A DNA stretch of 64,000 bases, taken from positions 1 through 64,000 of the IMG/VR virus record IMGVR_UViG_3300025121_000030. The stretch is one strand, 5' to 3'. Shown here piece by piece: positions 13,539 through 44,579 of the stretch. The notes beneath the pieces are model-generated. The model saw only the letters and a program-made list of their open reading frames with translations, ran no database searches and was not told the origin of the DNA. The stretch is from a virus. The translations under genes and the position numbers were made by a program. Within the stretch, counting starts at the first letter, position 1, and each line of letters starts with the position of its first letter.

Positions 13539-14930
13539 ATGAGAAAAGTTTTCTTAGATGATTTACCTAAGAAATATGGTAAAGGTATGTATATTAATAA
13601 ATTATGTTATGATTGGAAGAATAGTGTAGGGTACAAATTAAAATTTATTTATGATAATATTGAAGACGAATTAGAAATTGTTAATTATTATAAAATAAAA
13701 TATCAAAATTATTTAGATATTAAATATAATGATAGAACAGTAAGTATAACTACTAATGTTTTTATTAATTGTGGATTGGGTAATTTATTAAATAAACATA
13801 TTCAAGATTATAAATATAATATTGGCGATATTATAGAAAACAAATTTAGTAAAATAGAAATAATAGAACAAATTAGAATTCCTCGTAAAATAGATATGCA
13901 AAAAGGTTATAAATATAAGTGTTTAAAATGCGGAAACGAAGATCAAATAAGTGAAAGTAAATTAGATGGTAAACGAGGTTGTAATGTTTGTTGTTTTCCC
14001 TCAAAGAAAGTTTTAAAAGGTTATAACGATCTTTGGACTACTCATCCACATATTGCAAAATTATTAAAGGATAAAGAATTAGGATATAAAATAAGTCAAG
14101 GAAAGCATAATTATGAATTATTTGTTTGTCCTAATTGTAGATATGAAAAATTATATCTTCCTTATAACATAATTAGATTTGGCTTTAGTTGTCCAAAATG
14201 CGGAGATGGAATTTCTTTTGCTAATAAAGTAGGATTTAATTTATTAGAGCAATTAGGAATTGACTTTATACCTGAACATAATTTTTATAATTATAGATTA
14301 GATTTTTATTTTGAATTAAATAATAAAAAGTATAATTTTGAAATGGATGGCGGTATAGGTCACGGGAATAAAAATACACTAATTAATAAAACAGCAGAAG
14401 AATCTAAAGAAGATGATAAACAAAGAGATATATTTATAAATCAGCATAATATAGAAGTAATAAGAATTGATTGTTTAAAAAGTGAATTAGAATATATAAA
14501 AACCAATATATTAAATAGTCAATTAAATAATTTGTTTGATTTATCCATAATAGACTGGAATAAATGTGAAGAATTTACTAATAAGAGTTTAGTAAAAATC
14601 GCATGTGATTATTGGAATAATGGTATCAAAAGTACAAAAGGAATAGCAAAATTAATGAAATTATGTCATGCTACTATTGTTTCATATTTAAACAAAGGTG
14701 TTAAATCAGGATTCTGTGATTATAATAAAGGTAAAAGAAAAGTTATTCAATTATTACTTGAAAATAAATTTATAAAAGAATGGGAAAGTATTACAAAGGC
14801 AGAAAAAGAGTTAAATATAAGAGGTATATCATTATGTTGTAGTGGCAAAGCTAAAACAGCAGGTAAATTCAAATGGATGTATAAAGAAGATTACGAAGAA
14901 ATGTTATTAGAATTAGAACAAATACGATAA
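13539..14930 (+). CDS. putative free-standing homing endonuclease (Zn ribbons + Vsr/PD-(D/E)xK-like + NUMOD1)
   Basis: multiple CxxC, GYNDLWTTHP, DFYF...EMDG..H, RIDC, C-terminal ISLCCSGKAKTAGKFKW. Confidence 0.8.
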   Translation: MRKVFLDDLPKKYGKGMYINKLCYDWKNSVGYKLKFIYDNIEDELEIVNYYKIKYQNYLDIKYNDRTVSITTNVFINCGLGNLLNKHIQDYKYNIGDIIENKFSKIEIIEQIRIPRKIDMQKGYKYKCLKCGNEDQISESKLDGKRGCNVCCFPSKKVLKGYNDLWTTHPHIAKLLKDKELGYKISQGKHNYELFVCPNCRYEKLYLPYNIIRFGFSCPKCGDGISFANKVGFNLLEQLGIDFIPEHNFYNYRLDFYFELNNKKYNFEMDGGIGHGNKNTLINKTAEESKEDDKQRDIFINQHNIEVIRIDCLKSELEYIKTNILNSQLNNLFDLSIIDWNKCEEFTNKSLVKIACDYWNNGIKSTKGIAKLMKLCHATIVSYLNKGVKSGFCDYNKGKRKVIQLLLENKFIKEWESITKAEKELNIRGISLCCSGKAKTAGKFKWMYKEDYEEMLLELEQIR

Positions 14931-15062
14931 AATATAAATATAAATTTTTTACATATACATATTTTTTGTTAATTCATATAATAAATAAACCAAAATATAA
15001 AAAGAGGACTCCCCTATTGCTACAACCTAAATAAAATCTATAATCAAGACTGTAAAGAAGGT

Positions 15063-17000
15063 ATGAAGTTACTACCAGATAATTCTATATCATCAATTGT
15101 CACCGACCCACCTTACGGATTATCTAAAGAGCCAAATATAGTAGAGGTTTTAACTAACTGGTTAAACAATGAAGAATACATACATAATTCAAAAGGATTT
15201 ATGAATGTCGCATGGGATTCATTTGTTCCCAATCCTTCTATATGGAAAGAAGCATATAGAGTATTAAAACCAGGAGGATACTTATTATGCTTTGCTGGAA
15301 CACGTACATATGATTTAATGTGTATAAGTTTAAGATTAGCAGTATTTGAAATTAGAGATCAAATTGACTGGATCTATTCGACTGGTTTTCCCAAATCAAT
15401 GAATATCTCAAAAGAAATGGAAAAAAGAAGATGTAAAGTTAATATAGGTGAATGGATTTTAAAAAGAATGGAATTATTAAATTTAGATAAAAAAGATGTT
15501 GCAAAACATTGTAATGTAACACCTAGACAAATAGATCATTGGATTGGTATTAATACTCCTTGTCCTCAAAATCCCAATGAAAAAAGATATTTATTGTTAG
15601 AAGAAATATTGCAGGACAAACCATATTTTAGAGAACAATTTATTAGCAAAAAAGGTAAAAAGATTGGTGAAATTGTGCATCAAAGAAGTGGTGGAAATGA
15701 TTTTGCTAAAATTGTTGGTTCACAATCAAATTCAAAAACAGAAGAATTATTTGATTTAGCAACAGAAGAAGCAAAGCAATGGTCTGGATACGGTACATCC
15801 CTTAAACCAGCACACGAACCAATTATAGTAGCAAGAAAACCTCTAAGTGAAAAAACTATAGTAGATAATGTTCTAAAATGGAACACTGGTGGAATTAATA
15901 TTGATGATTGTAGGGTTGAATATCAATCAGAAGAAGATTTAAAAATTGTTAAAGCAAAATGTAACTTTACTGAGAATTCTAAATCAATAGGATTTGGTAC
16001 ATCAGATACTTTATATGGTACAGGTAGTACACCATTAAACCAAGCAAGAGAATGTGTTAATAATGAAGGTAGATTCCCTGCAAATATAATTATGGACGAA
16101 GAAGCAGGGAAAATATTAGATTTGCAAAGTGGTATTACTAAAAGTGGAAAAGTAAAAGAAAATAAAGATGCTTATAAAGGAGAATCTAATACGGGATTTT
16201 TAAGAGGTAAATCAACATTACAAAATCAACATGGTGATACAGGTGGAGCAAGTAGATATTTTTTAAATATATTATATTGTGAGGATGATTATATATGTGG
16301 GAATATTATAGAAAATCTGAAGGTCGTTGGTACATTAAATGGCGTAATCCAGGAGATAGAAAAATTTATTCAAAACGTAGAGCAAGATATATATGGGAAC
16401 AAAACTATGGAGAAATTCCTGTTGGATTTGAAGTGCATCATATTAATAGTGACAAATCTGACGATAGAATTGAAAATTTGGAATTATTATCAAAATATAA
16501 ACATAATAAATTACATGGAGATGCAAGAAAAGATCATAAAATTATTGATGGAATTGAATATAGAAAATGTCAACACTGTGGAGAATATAAAAATATTAAT
16601 GAATTTTATAAAAGAAATGAATGTTATCAAGGATATTGTAAAAATTGTTCAAGAGAAAAATTACGAGAATGGAGATATATCAACAAAGAATCTAATAATA
16701 AATATCACAGAGAATATCAAAGAGAAAAAAGGAAATTATATTAATTTTATGTATTGTGCTAAAGCAAGTAAAAAGGAACGTGGTGAAGGAAATAATCATC
16801 CATGCGTCAAACCATTATCATTAATTAAATATTTAGTCACATTAGTTACTCCACCTAATGGTATATGCTTAGACCCATTTGAAGGTTCAGGTACAACATT
16901 TCTTGCTTGTCGAGAATCGGGTTTTGATCATATAGGATTTGAAATGAATAAGGATTATTGTGATATTGCAGAGAAAAGATTGAATAATAAAAATACATAA
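15063..17000 (+). CDS. beta-class N4/N6 DNA methyltransferase with an internal HTH and a ~160-aa insertion
   Basis: TDPPY, RVLKPGG, LKPAHEPI, GRFPAN, HPCVKP, DPFEGSGTT; the natural start is probably TTG 15017 with a 1-nt frameshift. Confidence 0.92.
   Translation: MKLLPDNSISSIVTDPPYGLSKEPNIVEVLTNWLNNEEYIHNSKGFMNVAWDSFVPNPSIWKEAYRVLKPGGYLLCFAGTRTYDLMCISLRLAVFEIRDQIDWIYSTGFPKSMNISKEMEKRRCKVNIGEWILKRMELLNLDKKDVAKHCNVTPRQIDHWIGINTPCPQNPNEKRYLLLEEILQDKPYFREQFISKKGKKIGEIVHQRSGGNDFAKIVGSQSNSKTEELFDLATEEAKQWSGYGTSLKPAHEPIIVARKPLSEKTIVDNVLKWNTGGINIDDCRVEYQSEEDLKIVKAKCNFTENSKSIGFGTSDTLYGTGSTPLNQARECVNNEGRFPANIIMDEEAGKILDLQSGITKSGKVKENKDAYKGESNTGFLRGKSTLQNQHGDTGGASRYFLNILYCEDDYICGNIIENLKVVGTLNGVIQEIEKFIQNVEQDIYGNKTMEKFLLDLKCIILIVTNLTIELKIWNYYQNINIINYMEMQEKIIKLLMELNIENVNTVENIKILMNFIKEMNVIKDIVKIVQEKNYENGDISTKNLIINITENIKEKKGNYINFMYCAKASKKERGEGNNHPCVKPLSLIKYLVTLVTPPNGICLDPFEGSGTTFLACRESGFDHIGFEMNKDYCDIAEKRLNNKNT
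16295..16744 (+). CDS. HNH endonuclease + Zn finger, nested out of frame inside the methyltransferase
   Basis: GEIPVGFEVHHINSDKSDDRIENL..H..LH; CQHC/CKNC; own GAGGA RBS at 16281. Confidence 0.85.
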   Translation: MWEYYRKSEGRWYIKWRNPGDRKIYSKRRARYIWEQNYGEIPVGFEVHHINSDKSDDRIENLELLSKYKHNKLHGDARKDHKIIDGIEYRKCQHCGEYKNINEFYKRNECYQGYCKNCSREKLREWRYINKESNNKYHREYQREKRKLY

Positions 17001-17037
17001 TAATTTAAAAATATTTAACATAATATAAAAATAATTA

Positions 17038-17067
17038 TTGACTTCTACCCTACTCTCATGCTATAAT
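17038..17067 (+). promoter_or_regulatory. sigma-A-type promoter
   Basis: TTGACT-18-TATAAT with extended TG. Confidence 0.65.
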
Positions 17068-17135
17068 ACAATTAATCAATAAACAAATACATAAACAAAA
17101 ATCTTAAAAGTAATACAAATCTTATAAGAAAGGAG

Positions 17136-17327
17136 GTGAAAAATCCCCATATGGGTAAATATGAATATAAAGTTGAGTTTGAAACTAATAATTCAAATCT
17201 AAATAATTCAAATGAAATAATTCCTATTATTCTTAATAAAATAACAGATATAATAAGATCAGAATTATTACAATATGTAAATAATCCTATGGTTACTTTT
17301 ACAATATTAGAAAATGATGAAGAATAA
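17136..17327 (+). CDS. hypothetical protein
   Basis: AGGAGG RBS; downstream of the promoter. Confidence 0.6.
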   Translation: MKNPHMGKYEYKVEFETNNSNLNNSNEIIPIILNKITDIIRSELLQYVNNPMVTFTILENDEE

Positions 17328-17381
17328 AAGTTTAATTTAATTTAAACTTATATAAAATCTATAAGAAAGGAGGTCTACCCT

Positions 17382-17768
17382 ATCCAGAAATACTTAGGAA
17401 TTTACAACATCTTTACAGAAAATTACTATAATACAAATGAAACAATAATAGACAAAATGACAAATGAAAAGAATCAATATCTTCAAGGAAATTCAGGTAC
17501 ATATATATACAGATACTCTAAAGACACACTGGCAATATATTTTCCTAGTAATCAAACCATCAATAAATTAGATGAACAAAATATTGAATATACTATCTTA
17601 GCACAAGGCGATACAGAATCTATTTTATTAGTAAATGAAAAATACATAGATAAATTGGATTTAGCACTTAAATTTAAAGTAAAAGGACGTTTAGAACAAT
17701 TAAAAGAATTTAAACGTCAACAAAAATTAGAGAAAAAGTTAGAAAAGGAAAGTAAGAAAATAGTATAA
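17382..17768 (+). CDS. hypothetical protein (probable ATC start; first ATG 17457)
   Basis: AGGAGG at 17368-17373, 8 nt before an in-frame ATC; open frame to 17457. Confidence 0.65.
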   Translation: MQKYLGIYNIFTENYYNTNETIIDKMTNEKNQYLQGNSGTYIYRYSKDTLAIYFPSNQTINKLDEQNIEYTILAQGDTESILLVNEKYIDKLDLALKFKVKGRLEQLKEFKRQQKLEKKLEKESKKIV

Positions 17769-20386: not shown

Positions 20387-22060
20387 TTGTCAAATTACCC
20401 ACCACAAAGATACATATATAAAATTAATTCTACTAGATTAAGAAAATCAAAATGGAATTTAAATATTAGTATTGATGAAGCATCTGATAAAAATGAATTA
20501 GTTTCTTTGGCAGAAAGTGCATTAATTAGATTTATAGATATTATAAATAAAGTTAACACTAAATCTATATATGAAAAAGTTAATAATGTTTATAGGGATA
20601 TAAGCAAGATAAAAAAACTACCTACTTCTATTGATAATCGTAGAAAAATTAAATCATTATATAATAAAATATATGATTTATTATTGATAAAGGATTATGT
20701 TTGTATAGTAATAGATAACAATAAAGATTTTGATAGAATGAATAGTAAGAAAGGATTTTATATTAACGGTGTTAAATTTAAACATCTACTAGGCACTCCT
20801 GGAGGAGTAAAAAAATATACAATAACTTATGTTAGTGAAAATGTTTATGAAGATTTAGAAAATAAAATAGATAATGGTAGAAATATGAATAATAATTTTA
20901 TACCTGCAAAACTAGAATCATATAAATCTTTAGTTACTTCTTCTAGTATTCCTGTATCAGATCCAAAAGGAATACTAGTTGTAAATGACTGTATAACAAA
21001 TTTTAAAGCAAATGTAATTAAAATAGATGATACTATATCAGAGTATCCTGATATTGTATATGAAAAAGATTATCCTATTGAATTAAATGATAGTGATGGG
21101 TATGGTATTATCTCACCTGAATTAAGTAGAAGATGGATAAAAGAAATTAATAATGATAAAAGTATTGATGAAGAAGATAAAGAATATTTTATACCTAGTG
21201 GATATTGTCTGCGTAATTCTTTCTGTAAAGGCATGATTTTTTCGTTTAATTTCCAAGATTTTGCAAAAAATATAGCAAATAAAAAATATATAGTTAAGGA
21301 TGTTTGGAATGAAGATAGAGACATTAGAAATATAGAATTAATTTTAACAACCTCAATGCTTAAACTTTGGGATTCTTATGATTCACTTGAACATTATCTA
21401 TCTTGTTGTAAAAATAATGGATATTCATTTAGTATTACAAAACATACACCTAAAGTATTGGAAAATGAACGACATACAAATTACCAATTTTTGCAATCTT
21501 TATACTTAAATACTGAAGGTATTGAACAGTTAATTAAACCAACGACAGAAGAAATACATGATATTATTAGTAAGGATTATAGAAAAAGTATATTATTTCT
21601 TAAAGGTATACATTTAGATAAAATTAATTTTAATAATGAAGAAAATGATTTTATTAAAGCGTTAATGATTGATAAAAGAATGATAGATGATTCTTTTGTC
21701 AAAAATAAAATACATAATACGATTAAAAAAAGAATTAAAGATGCTAAGATAGGTGTATTAAAGACAAAGGCAAATTACTCTATTGTTTCAGGTGATATTT
21801 TTAGTTTATGTCAAAATATATTTGGAATGGAAGTAACAGGTTTGTTAAAAGAAGGAGAATTTTATTCTAAATATTGGAATGATTTAGATGTAGATAAAGT
21901 TGCTTGTTTTCGTGCTCCTATGACTTGTCACAATAATATTAGAATATTAAATTTGAAGAATACAGAAGATATGCGAAAATGGTATAAATATATGAATACA
22001 ATTACAATTTTTAATTCATGGGATACTACTGCTCATGCTTTAAATGGTTTAGATAAGGAT
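20387..22060 (+). CDS. yonO: YonO-like single-subunit RNA polymerase, exon 1
   Basis: PAKLESY, SDGYG, RNSFCKGM, TTSMLKLW, TNYQFLQ, CFRAP, ends LNGLDKD; position ahead of the SPbeta-like late genes. Confidence 0.88.
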
Positions 22061-23100
22061 TGATTACAGTCCCTTATGTTAGTAATAACATATGAAAAAT
22101 CCGGTGAACTTGCAGAGCAAGGTGTCACATTGACTTAATTGTTTGTAGTAGGAAATGACTACTTAACAATGTGGCTAACAGGGGAAGTCTAAGTGTGTGT
22201 TTATAATCAAGGAGGAATAAAATATAGAAGTTTGGAAAAATATTAATATAAATGGTCTGGATTATGAGGTTAGTAATTATGGTAATATTATAGGAGTTAG
22301 TTCTGGAAAATTATTAAAAACTAGATTAAATAAAGATGGATATGTTTGTGTAACTGTTGGGAAAAATGATTGTAGAATAACTGAAAGATTACATAGATTG
22401 GTTGCAAAATTATTTATTAATAATATTAATAATTATCCAGAAGTTAATCATAAAGATTTTGATAGAACTAATAATCATGTCGATAATTTAGAGTGGGAAA
22501 CACATGAATATAATATTAAATATACAGTTTTACATAATAGACATATTGCAAGAGATGGAAGAATGAAAGGTGAAAATAATCCAAATTATAACAATAATAG
22601 TTTAAAATTAAAATACATGAATAATCCAGAATTAGCAAAACTAAATAATTCTAGACCAAAAGAGCAAAATGGCAGAGCAAGAAAAATACAATTATATGAT
22701 ATTAATAATAATTATATAGATACTTTTGAATATATAGGTGCTTGTGCAGAATATTTAAGGGATAATAATTTTACAAAAGCAAAAGTTGATTCTATAAGAG
22801 GTAATATAATACTAAGTATTAATAATAATAAATCATATTTAAAACATTATTATAAATTTGTTAGTTAAATTAATATAAATAAACACACATATGATAATCC
22901 TGTGCGAAATCTTAATAATTATTAAGATAATCGTTAAACGACTATCCTGAAATAGTGGTGAAATTCCACAATAGGAGTAGGACTGTAGCGATACAGTGGG
23001 TGAAATTCCCTTAAATCGAAGTGCCGGACTCCTTAATTTTTTAAGGATGATGATATAGTCTAGTCCCTTTTGAAATACTGCGAAAGCAGGGGTACAATCG
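22061..23100 (+). mobile_element. group I intron carrying a homing endonuclease
   Basis: P1 ggaU/Gucc with U-G at 22060; P3 tccgg/ccgga; P7 gactat/atagtc; terminal G 23100; splicing restores the frame (DKD|SDCVFTTNN). Confidence 0.92.
22224..22868 (+). CDS. intron-encoded NUMOD4-HNH homing endonuclease (probable ATA start)
   Basis: EVWKNI..YEVSNYG..GY..V..HRLVA..F..EVNHKD..NN...NLEW; AGGAGG 8 nt upstream; enclosed by stem gtgtgtttat/ataaacacac. Confidence 0.88.
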   Translation: MEVWKNININGLDYEVSNYGNIIGVSSGKLLKTRLNKDGYVCVTVGKNDCRITERLHRLVAKLFINNINNYPEVNHKDFDRTNNHVDNLEWETHEYNIKYTVLHNRHIARDGRMKGENNPNYNNNSLKLKYMNNPELAKLNNSRPKEQNGRARKIQLYDINNNYIDTFEYIGACAEYLRDNNFTKAKVDSIRGNIILSINNNKSYLKHYYKFVS

Positions 23101-34600: not shown

Positions 34601-36259
34601 ATGTTGCTAACAAAAGAAGTAGAAATTGGCTTAAGTGGAAGACATATTAAATGGTATAAAAATAAAGGATATATAATACCAAGGGAAAAAGATAATCAAG
34701 GAAGGTTGTCAGTTCCACAGAATACAAAAATATTAGTTAAAGTAGAGGATTTATTAGATAGTTATAAGGTGCAAGTTGATATTGGATGTGATGAGTGTGG
34801 AGAATATTTAAAAACAATAGCATTGAATGATTATCGAAAATATATTAAAGACGATGAACAACATTATTGTATAAATTGTTTTAATTCATTATATATTAAT
34901 GGAATTAAAGCACAAGAAGTTAAGCAAATAATTAATAATAACTTAGGAGATACTTGGAAATTACTTAATGTTAAAATAATAAATACTCAAATTAATGTAG
35001 ATTTAATTAATTCGGATGGATATATGTATAGTAAAATTAAAATTTCCAGCATAAAAAAAGGTTATATACCACAAGGGTTTTATAAATCTAATATATACAT
35101 ATATCAAAATATTAATAATTGGTGTAAAATAAATAATTATAATATTAGATTGAGTGATGAGTACATTGGCTATGATGTAAAACTTAAATGGGAATGTTTA
35201 GACTGTAATCATATATTTGAAAGAAGTATGAATGCTATTACACGTGGGCAAGTGGGATGTTCTATTTGTGGAGATAATATTTCATACCCCAATAAGTTTG
35301 GACGTAATTTATTAAACCAATTAAATAATACATACAAATTAAAATATATAAAATTCGAATATTCACCGGATTGGATTAAACCTAAGAGATATGATAGTTA
35401 TTTTGAATTTAATAATAAAAAATATATAATTGAAATGGATAGAGCATTGGGACATGGTAATAAAAAAACATTAGATGGAACCACCCCTGAAGAATCTCAA
35501 GCTATAGATGATTATAAAGATAAAAAAGCAAAAGAACATAATATTAAGATGATTAGAATTGATTGTGTAAAATCAGATATGAAATATATTAGAGATAATA
35601 TTTTAGTTAGTGGATTAGCACAGATATTTGATTTATCTAATATTGATTGGTTAAAATGTCATGAGTTTGCTTGTAACAATTTAGTAAAAGAAACATCTAA
35701 ATTATGGAATGCTGGAATTAAAAATTCATCAGAAATTAGTGTTATTCTGAACTTAGGAAAGAGAACAGTTATAAGATATCTTAATGAATGTAGTAAATTG
35801 GGGTGGTGTGATTATGATGCCAATGAAATACAAAAAGCAAGTGGGGTAAGATTAGGAAAATCAGGGGCGAAACCAGTTGTTCAATTGTCGTTAAGTGGTG
35901 AATATGTTCAAGAATATAGTAGCATGGTTGAAGCTGAAAAACAAACAGGAATTATTATTATGAGTATTTCATCTTGTTGCAGAGGTAAATTAAAATCTGC
36001 TGGTGGATATCAATGGATGTTTCTTTCAGATTATAATAAAAGCGAAATAAAACAATATAAAAAATCTCCATATGTTAAAAAAGTTGTTCAACTATCACTA
36101 AATAAAGAATATATTTCGGAGTTTGATAGTATTATTGAAGCAGAAAGACAATTAAAAATAAATCATTCAAATATTTCTTCTTGTTGTCTTGGTAAATATA
36201 ATCATGCAGGTGGTTTTAAATGGATGTACAAATCAGATTATGAAAAATTAGTTGGATAG
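34601..36259 (+). CDS. putative free-standing homing endonuclease (Zn ribbons, Vsr-like, two NUMOD1)
   Basis: paralogous to 13539 (ISYPNK, RYD.YF, EMD..GH, RIDC); ISSCC.GK..SAGG.W x2. Confidence 0.8.
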   Translation: MLLTKEVEIGLSGRHIKWYKNKGYIIPREKDNQGRLSVPQNTKILVKVEDLLDSYKVQVDIGCDECGEYLKTIALNDYRKYIKDDEQHYCINCFNSLYINGIKAQEVKQIINNNLGDTWKLLNVKIINTQINVDLINSDGYMYSKIKISSIKKGYIPQGFYKSNIYIYQNINNWCKINNYNIRLSDEYIGYDVKLKWECLDCNHIFERSMNAITRGQVGCSICGDNISYPNKFGRNLLNQLNNTYKLKYIKFEYSPDWIKPKRYDSYFEFNNKKYIIEMDRALGHGNKKTLDGTTPEESQAIDDYKDKKAKEHNIKMIRIDCVKSDMKYIRDNILVSGLAQIFDLSNIDWLKCHEFACNNLVKETSKLWNAGIKNSSEISVILNLGKRTVIRYLNECSKLGWCDYDANEIQKASGVRLGKSGAKPVVQLSLSGEYVQEYSSMVEAEKQTGIIIMSISSCCRGKLKSAGGYQWMFLSDYNKSEIKQYKKSPYVKKVVQLSLNKEYISEFDSIIEAERQLKINHSNISSCCLGKYNHAGGFKWMYKSDYEKLVG

Positions 36260-43256: not shown

Positions 43257-44579
43257 ATGGGATTGATAAATGAAACAGTGTTAGTTAAGATGAATGGGGT
43301 AAATACAAAACATTATGAAAATTTAGGATATATAATTCCGAAGAAAAAACATTCTCAACGAAAAAATATTTTAGTATATGATACTACAAACCCCATATTG
43401 GTAAAAATTGAAGATTTATTAGATAATAGTCATGCTTTAGTAAATATTGAATGTGATGATTGTGGGAGAAAAATAGAAAATGTTATATGGCAAGCATATA
43501 AAAGATATGTTGGAGAAAATGGTGTATATTATTGTCAAAAATGTGCCAATAAATTATTTAGAAGACCAACATATAAAAAAACTAAATTAAAAAACAGCAA
43601 ATCTTTTGAGCAATGGTGTATTGAAAATAATAAACAGGATATTCTTTTACGTTGGGATTATGAATTAAATGATTGCAAGCACAGTGAAATTACATATGGG
43701 GTGGATAAAAAATATTATTTTAAATGCCCAATGGGAATACATAAAAGCGAATTAAAACAAATTAATTGTTTAACAAGTGGACAAGAAGGAAGTATGGATT
43801 GTAAACTATGTAATTCCTTTGCTCAATGGGGAATTGATAATTTAGGCGTTGATTTCTTCGAGAAGTATTGGGATTGTGAGAAAAATACAATTAATCCTTG
43901 GGATATAAGTAAATGTAATAATACAAGAAAAGTTTGGATAAGATGTCAAGAAAAAAAATATCATAATAATTATGATATAAGTTGTTATCGATTTATTATG
44001 GGTGACAGATGTTCTTATTGTAGTAAACGTGGAGGCAAGGTACATTCATTAGATAGCTTAGGTACATTATTTCCAAAATCTTTAGAATTATGGTCTGATA
44101 AAAATAAAAAATCGCCATATGAGTATGCACCTAAAAGTGATAAAGAAGTATATTGGAAATGTCCTAATGGAAAACATGATGATTATATTAGAGATATTTG
44201 TAATTCTAATAAATGTGATTTTAGATGCCCAGAGTGTGCATATTCCAAAGGTGAAGAAAGAATTAGTAATTATTTTATAAATAAAAATATAAACTATATT
44301 CCACAAAAAGAATTTGATGGTTTAGTTGGATTAAACAATGGTTTATTATCTTATGATTTTTATTTACCAGAATATGGTCTTATAGAATATCAAGGCGAAC
44401 AACATGAGAGATATATAAAAGGTTTCCATAAGTCAAAAAAGGATTTTGAAAAACAATTAGAGCATGATAGAAGAAAAAGACAATATTGTGTTGATAACAA
44501 TATAAAATTATTAGAAATTTGGTATTATGACTTTGACAACATCGAATCTATTCTTCAAAGAGAATTAAATTTACAATAA
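43257..44579 (+). CDS. putative homing endonuclease (Zn-ribbon repeats + Vsr-like domain)
   Basis: WDYELN/WKC..GH repeats; SKGEERI, LSYDFY, IEYQGEQH, HD.RK..YC..NNIKLLEIWY. Confidence 0.82.
   Translation: MGLINETVLVKMNGVNTKHYENLGYIIPKKKHSQRKNILVYDTTNPILVKIEDLLDNSHALVNIECDDCGRKIENVIWQAYKRYVGENGVYYCQKCANKLFRRPTYKKTKLKNSKSFEQWCIENNKQDILLRWDYELNDCKHSEITYGVDKKYYFKCPMGIHKSELKQINCLTSGQEGSMDCKLCNSFAQWGIDNLGVDFFEKYWDCEKNTINPWDISKCNNTRKVWIRCQEKKYHNNYDISCYRFIMGDRCSYCSKRGGKVHSLDSLGTLFPKSLELWSDKNKKSPYEYAPKSDKEVYWKCPNGKHDDYIRDICNSNKCDFRCPECAYSKGEERISNYFINKNINYIPQKEFDGLVGLNNGLLSYDFYLPEYGLIEYQGEQHERYIKGFHKSKKDFEKQLEHDRRKRQYCVDNNIKLLEIWYYDFDNIESILQRELNLQ

Follow-up and report, generated by a model that had tools for sequence, protein, structure and literature searches.

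An HNH endonuclease gene nested out of frame within an uninterrupted reading frame of a phage DNA methylase gene

The ShiLan domain of mycobacteriophage methylases, described by Arsenault, Gosselin and Gogarten in 2025 (Genes, PMC11855218) following the work of Gosselin et al. in 2023 (PMC9957025), is an insertion that leaves the host frame free of stop codons, lacks the features of introns and inteins, and carries an out-of-frame HNH gene with zinc fingers; its retention in the protein was proposed by the authors (PMC11855218). The host-frame reading of this insertion was predicted as a low-confidence helical hairpin (PMC11855218, section 4.1), and a second hidden HNH-like open reading frame (ORF) was described in a divergent actinophage methylase, Pacc40 gp60 (PMC11855218, section 3.6). 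The published read-through cases rest on about ten actinophage genes. Alongside introns and inteins, such read-through nesting gives homing endonucleases a third means of occupying an essential-looking frame without killing it. In this study, positions 1 to 64,000 of the IMG/VR virus record IMGVR_UViG_3300025121_000030 (hereafter the window) were analysed, in which a DNA methylase ORF runs through a complete HNH endonuclease gene encoded in another frame. The nesting arrangement has already been published as the ShiLan kind, and the element in the window is, as judged from sequence comparison, an independent lineage at a new site. This lineage contributes a quantitative test that selection keeps the host frame open, HNH copies whose decay tells two selective pressures apart, and dozens of divergent carriers in environmental phages and phages of low guanine-plus-cytosine (GC) content.

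The methylase ORF on the plus strand, between positions 15063 and 17000, comprises 645 codons counted from the first in-frame ATG and reads through the insert. The encoded protein matched PF01555 in Pfam at 2e-30 (106.8 bits against a cut-off of 26.7). The motifs are in the beta-class order, with DPPY near the N-terminus and FxGxG (DPFEGSGTT, 16872-16898) near the C-terminus, and the relatives in the PDB are the beta-class enzymes DpnA, CcrM and M.MboIIA. The window methylase is thus a beta-class member of PF01555 (N6_N4_Mtase). Its C-terminal part (16752-17000, plus strand), which was delimited from the ORF list, Pfam, alignment and PDB relatives, contains YCAKASKKER, NNHPCVKP and DPFEGSGTT. 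The nested gene (16295-16744, plus strand) encodes a protein of 149 amino acids with a C-terminal CxxC...CxxC zinc-finger region, and matched HNH_3 (PF13392, 57.2 bits against a cut-off of 24.8) as well as PHROG HNH families. Its ATG falls on host codon position 3, so that the two genes are offset by one base, with the host frame at +1 relative to the HNH gene; a GAGGA sequence (16281-16285) lies nine bases upstream. Across the HNH gene, the third frame contains 29 stops and the host frame none; the host-frame read-through (16293-16742, plus strand) spans 150 codons and is predicted to form three long helices with low confidence. The unbroken methylase frame over a complete HNH gene with its own ribosome-binding site, and the position of DPFEGSGTT downstream of the insert, had been reported in an initial annotation made from the sequence letters, and both were confirmed by the ORF and Pfam analyses.

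The boundaries of the insert depend on which insert-free allele serves as the reference. Compared with the closest insert-free methylases (P0002-P0005 and L165-L169), which read GGASRFF-KQCNYDD(S/N)DYE(V/A)(I)NFM-YCAKAS, the insert extends from 16293 to 16739 and is almost exactly the HNH ORF, whereas compared with the minimal allele P0009 (GGASRFF|YCAKAS) it extends from 16263 to 16751 and comprises 163 codons. Because the left 30 nucleotides differ between occupied and empty alleles and hold the Shine-Dalgarno site, the region from 16263 to 16294 (plus strand; host-frame reading LNILYCEDDY-I) was treated as a cassette leader; it is missing from P0009 and diverges from the matching stretch of L165-L169. 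The cassette trailer, placed by alignment between 16745 and 16751 on the plus strand, includes the host codons ATT AAT that provide the HNH stop TAA. Other lineages have SRFF before the cassette and (S)RFF-Y after it, and the host-frame INFM at the trailer of the window is a degenerate equivalent of this duplicated (S)RFF. The insertion site is length-variable among insert-free homologues. In the initial annotation, an in-frame 7-bp direct repeat, TATTGTG, at 16275 and 16752 (477 bp apart) had been regarded as bounding the insert. The repeat exists, with a third copy at 16956, but its meaning as a boundary was rejected, since the 7-mer occurs at chance frequency (15 copies in the window against 15.9 expected) and is not conserved in other lineages. 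No promoter-like site stood out upstream of the HNH gene (18 sites against 15.9 expected).

The ShiLan methylase gp65, the sequence of which was taken from JN020143, belongs to the same methylase subfamily as the window methylase, and the conserved blocks of the two are collinear. In both, an HNH gene with zinc fingers occupies an alternative frame under a stop-free host frame, begins on the third position of a host codon and terminates within the final bases of the insert, and the last residue of the host-frame reading is Asn. Both inserts are also free of intron and intein signals, are patchily distributed across divergent methylases, and give a host-frame reading predicted as helical with low confidence. 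However, the ShiLan insert lies inside ALKPxxEP|IVVARKP, whereas the site in the window, GGASRFF|YCAKAS, is ~150 residues further downstream. The HNH proteins, of 149 amino acids in the window and 195 in ShiLan, are 31% identical over a core of 77 amino acids only; the window HNH gene has an ATG and a Shine-Dalgarno sequence, whereas that of ShiLan has a GTG and no ribosome-binding site; and the window lineage occurs in uncultured phages of 24-54% GC, in contrast to the high-GC actinophages of ShiLan. An identification of the window element as a ShiLan domain proper was rejected on account of the other site, the HNH likeness confined to the core motif, and the lack of a tblastn match in 50,697 cultured phage records. 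The Pacc40 gp60 insertion shows that this strategy has arisen independently at more than one methylase site; going by its published description, it differs from the window element in methylase family, site and nuclease. As a separate observation, ShiLan gp65 (L199:2786-6059) ends soon after GGASRFF..YEAKAPGAER, without the half that holds HPxxKP and DPFxGSG, and a separate 83-amino-acid "DNA methylase", gp67, is located ~140 nucleotides downstream, so that the ShiLan methylase as published may also be split, with the break close to where the HNH gene sits in the window.

A HMMER scan of 1.84 billion cluster representatives (50%-identity clusters) with the host-frame reading of the insert as query returned 45 proteins, most of which matched over nearly the full insert length. 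Among the aligned insert-bearing proteins, 44 of 48 were PF01555 methylases, and the methylase parts of the carriers were ~40-50% identical to that of the window. The alignment with insert-free homologues suggested in the initial annotation showed that the insert is absent from the close homologues P0002-P0005, P0009 and L165-L169. The insert-free L165-L169 and the insert-bearing L001 belong to one sample series, with L166 and L168 from the same sample. Judged from this pattern of occurrence, the distribution is disjunct, since methylases that share only ~40-50% identity among themselves carry one and the same cassette at one site. When 50,697 cultured phage records were searched, blastn with the gene and tblastn with the host-frame insert detected no relative of the cassette, and tblastn with the HNH protein detected only distant free-standing HNH genes (28-51% identity). 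Only eight close homologues of the HNH protein had been called as genes, all on contigs of 1.1 kb or less, which is expected if gene callers suppress the HNH gene under the longer host ORF. In practice, the nested HNH gene is missed by gene callers almost everywhere, and the methylase is reported ~150 residues too long.

To avoid a bias towards open frames, DNA loci were retrieved by alignment of the HNH protein only, blind to the host frame. This yielded 23 loci (21 distinct sequences, GC 0.24-0.54) containing an HNH relative at 55-94% identity. All 23 had no stop in the host frame and between 14 and 28 stops in the third frame. Together with the 45 cluster representatives, these loci answered the call in the initial annotation for alternate-frame HNH inserts with stop avoidance at this loop, and none of the 23 carried the methylase-frame stops that, if common, it had named as evidence to the contrary. 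In 22 of the loci the cassette was situated downstream of a GGASRFF-type block, and those that reached far enough continued after it with (S)RFFYxAKAS-ER. The exception, L095 (131-2077), has no ARKP-to-SRFF stretch at all, and the sequence before its cassette is ...VLARKPYIKKGTIKKQYIQPKEKE; this locus appears to encode a methylase from which the variable (target-recognition) part was deleted. No HNH relative as close as 55-94% identity was found other than in nested form at this site of the methylase.

Three of the loci, L096, L098 and L099, had a stop inside the HNH frame, yet their host frame was still open. Coding for the HNH protein therefore does not account for the open host frame, which is maintained for the host gene, and the two selective pressures are thus separated. 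As controls, 77 more distant HNH_3 genes from viral contigs were analysed, and their +1 frame contained 5.9 stops per 100 codons, with only two of the 77 being stop-free. Both stop-free controls were themselves nested in larger ORFs: the HNH_3 gene of L037 (1701-3767) is embedded in a C5 cytosine methylase, and that of L009 (1680-3887) is found in a 735-amino-acid terminase-like ORF, within a stretch that has an intein-like start (CFVADTMIST...).

Within the window itself, the +1 frame of long ORFs contained 9.2 stops per 100 codons. The chance test for the insert was conditioned on the HNH protein sequence, because few HNH codons (22 of 149) have T at position 2. Resampling of synonymous HNH codons according to the codon usage of the window gave 5.3 expected stops and a probability of zero stops of 4.5e-4; shuffling the order of the HNH codons gave P = 8.5e-4, and permuting only the synonymous codons of the HNH gene itself gave P = 0.01. 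Ten of the 11 Ile codons in the HNH gene were ATT or ATC, while ATA accounts for 39% of Ile codons in the genes of the window, and all five TTA codons were followed by T or C. The stop-free host frame of the insert is thus significantly beyond chance, although less extreme than the value of about 1e-6 first estimated, which had not been conditioned in this way.

Site variability across the family at HNH codon positions 1, 2 and 3 was 0.70, 0.49 and 0.88, respectively. Between the window and L085, 18 differences were counted, of which eight were synonymous for the HNH gene and none for the host. These two results indicate that amino-acid constraint acts on the HNH frame only and that the host frame is merely kept open.

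The locus probably represents a mobile HNH cassette nested in a phage methylase gene, with the host read straight through it and no removal step. A splicing-free insertion of a homing endonuclease that keeps the host frame open in a tolerant loop had been put forward in the initial annotation, and it is upheld by the open frame throughout the HNH-retrieved loci, including the three with decayed HNH genes, and by the length variability of the site. The cassette, consisting of the leader with its Shine-Dalgarno sequence, the HNH_3 and zinc-finger ORF, and the trailer, would occupy a surface region of variable length in a beta-class N6/N4 methylase, with the GGASRFF block on one side and the YCAKAS-ER-HPxxKP block on the other. 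The methylase mRNA would be translated through the cassette in the host frame, adding ~150-163 filler residues, and ribosomes initiating internally on that mRNA, at the ribosome-binding site of the HNH gene, would produce the HNH protein. Host-frame stops would be purged by selection for the methylase, and selection on the HNH gene would act on amino acids in its own frame. The HNH protein presumably cuts insert-free alleles, into which the cassette would then be copied by repair; its cleavage specificity and homing are suggested by the distribution, as homing would explain why methylases of such low identity share both cassette and site. In an AlphaFold2 model built with the family alignment, the N- and C-terminal parts of the methylase were confident, and the insert formed three long helices with a predicted local distance difference test score of 30-58. 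This low-confidence helical insert fits a tolerated, loosely attached appendage. We infer that read-through translation occurs and that methylase activity is retained.

Several points weigh against this interpretation. The insert of ~150 residues lies just before the ER-HPxxKP block and upstream of the DPFEGSGTT motif that binds S-adenosylmethionine, and activity of the enzyme is only predicted. Some family members have no visible Shine-Dalgarno sequence before the HNH ATG. Splicing by a mechanism that sequence analysis alone does not recognise may also take place. Finally, the window methylase has a 1-base insertion at codon 4, which puts its native TTG start out of frame.

This insertion, a feature missed by the initial annotation, bears on an alternative explanation, namely that the window methylase is already dead or dying from a frameshift at its 5' end and has merely inherited the open frame from an ancestor that was functional until recently. 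Comparison of the DNA with that of L001 and L165-L169 located the native ribosome-binding site (AGAGGA) and TTG start between 15003 and 15019 on the plus strand, as in these relatives. In six relatives the methylase starts with TTG or ATG after GGAGGA and reads (M/L)LQLNKIYN, and the N-termini of P0001, P0002 and P0003 are likewise (L/M)LQLNKIYN. The window has one extra C after TTGCTACAA, giving CC (15026-15027, plus strand) where the six relatives have a single base; owing to this extra C, the ORF from the TTG ends after five codons at a TAA (15032-15034). The long methylase frame can then start only at the ATG at 15063, whereby 15 conserved residues are lost, and this ATG is preceded by GAAGG just 1-2 nucleotides upstream, a poor Shine-Dalgarno spacing. 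On the other hand, the frame behind the extra C is open from 15018 to 17000 (660 codons) at 25% GC, so that any inactivation would be very recent; a change from C to CC, being a single extra base, could be an assembly error; and the shift is absent from the cluster representative P0001, which shows no other difference. The extra C may be an assembly or sequencing error or a very recent inactivating frameshift, and the copy may be defective or start at the ATG at 15063. A dead copy is a somewhat unlikely explanation of the locus, and since it is limited to this copy it does not contradict the mechanism at the level of the family.

It is considerably less probable that the insert is removed from the RNA by an unrecognised self-splicing or host-assisted mechanism, with the open host frame being incidental or serving another purpose. 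HNH genes are often carried by group I introns, and the leader begins with a sequence (LNILYC) similar to that found 3' of the site (NFMYC), a feature also discussed for ShiLan. However, an Rfam cmscan search of positions 14500 to 17600 at E-values up to 10 found no intron, with two chance hits only and neither of them to an intron family, and only 32 and 7 nucleotides of the cassette lie outside the HNH ORF, which leaves no room for a ribozyme core. Moreover, a spliced element needs no open host frame, yet this frame is kept at every one of the 23 loci, the three with a dead HNH gene among them. A group I intron with an HNH ORF was accordingly rejected, as there was neither a detectable ribozyme core (P3-P9) nor space for one. 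The HNH ORFs of phage group I introns, such as I-HmuI and I-PfoP3I, are similar in that an HNH homing endonuclease lies inside a phage gene of DNA metabolism, but differ from the window in their ribozyme, in the space that it takes, and in the open host frame of the window.

An intein was also considered and rejected. The host-frame reading of the insert had no match in Pfam, including any Hint or intein domain, and no terminal His-Asn (the insert ends ...GNYIN(FM)), and the residue at +1 varies between lineages (C, V or T). The Cys-Gly that leads the host-frame insert is the ATG-TGG (Met-Trp) of the HNH gene read one base later. The absence of a group I core and of intein termini, as recorded in the initial annotation, was thereby corroborated. 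Inteins with homing endonuclease domains resemble the window element in being inserted in frame and translated with the host protein, but the nuclease in the window is in a different frame and has neither a Hint domain nor a terminal His-Asn, and protein splicing is not expected. Separately, LAGLIDADG-type inteins were observed in L001 (995-3703) and P0020 at DWI(Y/F)G|C...GN|SGFPKS of the same methylase family, and L001 (902 amino acids) holds both an intein and the hidden HNH gene. ShiLan gp65 has an intein at the same WxYG|C site.

The initial annotation also considered that ribosomes bypass the insert, leaving the message at TAT-TGT (16275) and resuming at the matched codons (16752); such bypassing, of the type known from T4 gene 60, could draw on the in-frame repeat on both sides and on the association of the T4 bypass with a homing-endonuclease cassette (PMC5009743), but it can practically be dismissed, as the gap would be 477 nucleotides and stop-free compared with 50 nucleotides in T4, the repeat is at chance frequency, the matched codons are not conserved in other lineages, and bypassing would remove the need for a stop-free frame conserved family-wide. 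Programmed translational bypass of this type was rejected as a candidate, since conserved take-off and landing codons and a short, stop-containing gap were not found. That the stop-free host frame is a chance by-product of an HNH protein rich in K, E, N, R and Y and encoded with few hydrophobic codons gains something from the scarcity of T at position 2, which makes the naive 1e-6 too low, and from the own-codon permutation, but is effectively refuted by the result under genome codon usage and by a frame open in all 23 relatives over a wide GC range against two of 77 controls.

Read-through nesting of the cassette can also be set beside "genes in pieces", of which T4 gene 39/60, split by a homing endonuclease, is an example (PMC5009743). 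Both are insertions of a homing endonuclease gene into a coding region without intron or intein; in the window, however, the host gene is unsplit and one continuous ORF spans the nuclease gene. In L090 (82-4866), two free-standing HNH genes (1622-2206 and 3096-3779) split a related methylase into three ORFs. The first piece has an intein and, likewise nested in this piece, a second out-of-frame HNH-like ORF (242-1090), and the middle piece contains a read-through HNH gene of the window family (2501-2947).

A wider proposal, which we regard as improbable though worth stating, is that this methylase family, in which an intein and gene-splitting HNH genes are found as well, is a hotspot where read-through nesting evolved on two or more separate occasions, once at the ShiLan site and once at that of the window, that linkers retaining remnants of leader and trailer are scars left after excision, and that a splicing-free element would here pass through a full cycle of invasion, decay and loss. 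In a bolder version, the three-helix read-through peptide would have been co-opted as a functional arm of the methylase. The insert-free L165-L169 (~2488-2601) keep a linker of 14-16 residues, KQCNYDDSDYEVINFM, that resembles the cassette leader plus trailer, and P0075 reads SRFF-LNIEGEEPPT-RFF with an internal duplication. These linkers in empty alleles may be scars of lost cassettes.

The methylase of the window also carries a second lineage-specific module of ~115 residues (~15414-15758), located 3' of GFPKS (..RRCKVNIGEWILKRMELLNLDKKDVAKHCNVTPRQIDHW..). The module is common to P0002 and P0009 and is not present in P0003-P0005; by eye, it resembles a helix-turn-helix.

The window derives from a tailed phage of 25% GC. 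Besides genes for terminase and portal, it holds a YonO-like polymerase-like ORF and several free-standing genes of homing-endonuclease-like type. One of the latter (13539-14930, plus strand), which matched phrog_4538 and phrog_9084 ("homing endonuclease"), is directly upstream of the methylase gene and outside the cassette. It is one of three paralogous free-standing genes of this type, the others being at 34601-36259 and 43257-44579; they are related to phrog_4538, phrog_9084 and phrog_559 and have treble-clef zinc fingers. The polymerase-like ORF (558 amino acids, 20387-22063) showed a weak Pfam match to RdRP (RNA-dependent RNA polymerase, PF05183) and a full-length match to phrog_25339, and it fits a YonO-like two-barrel RNA polymerase.

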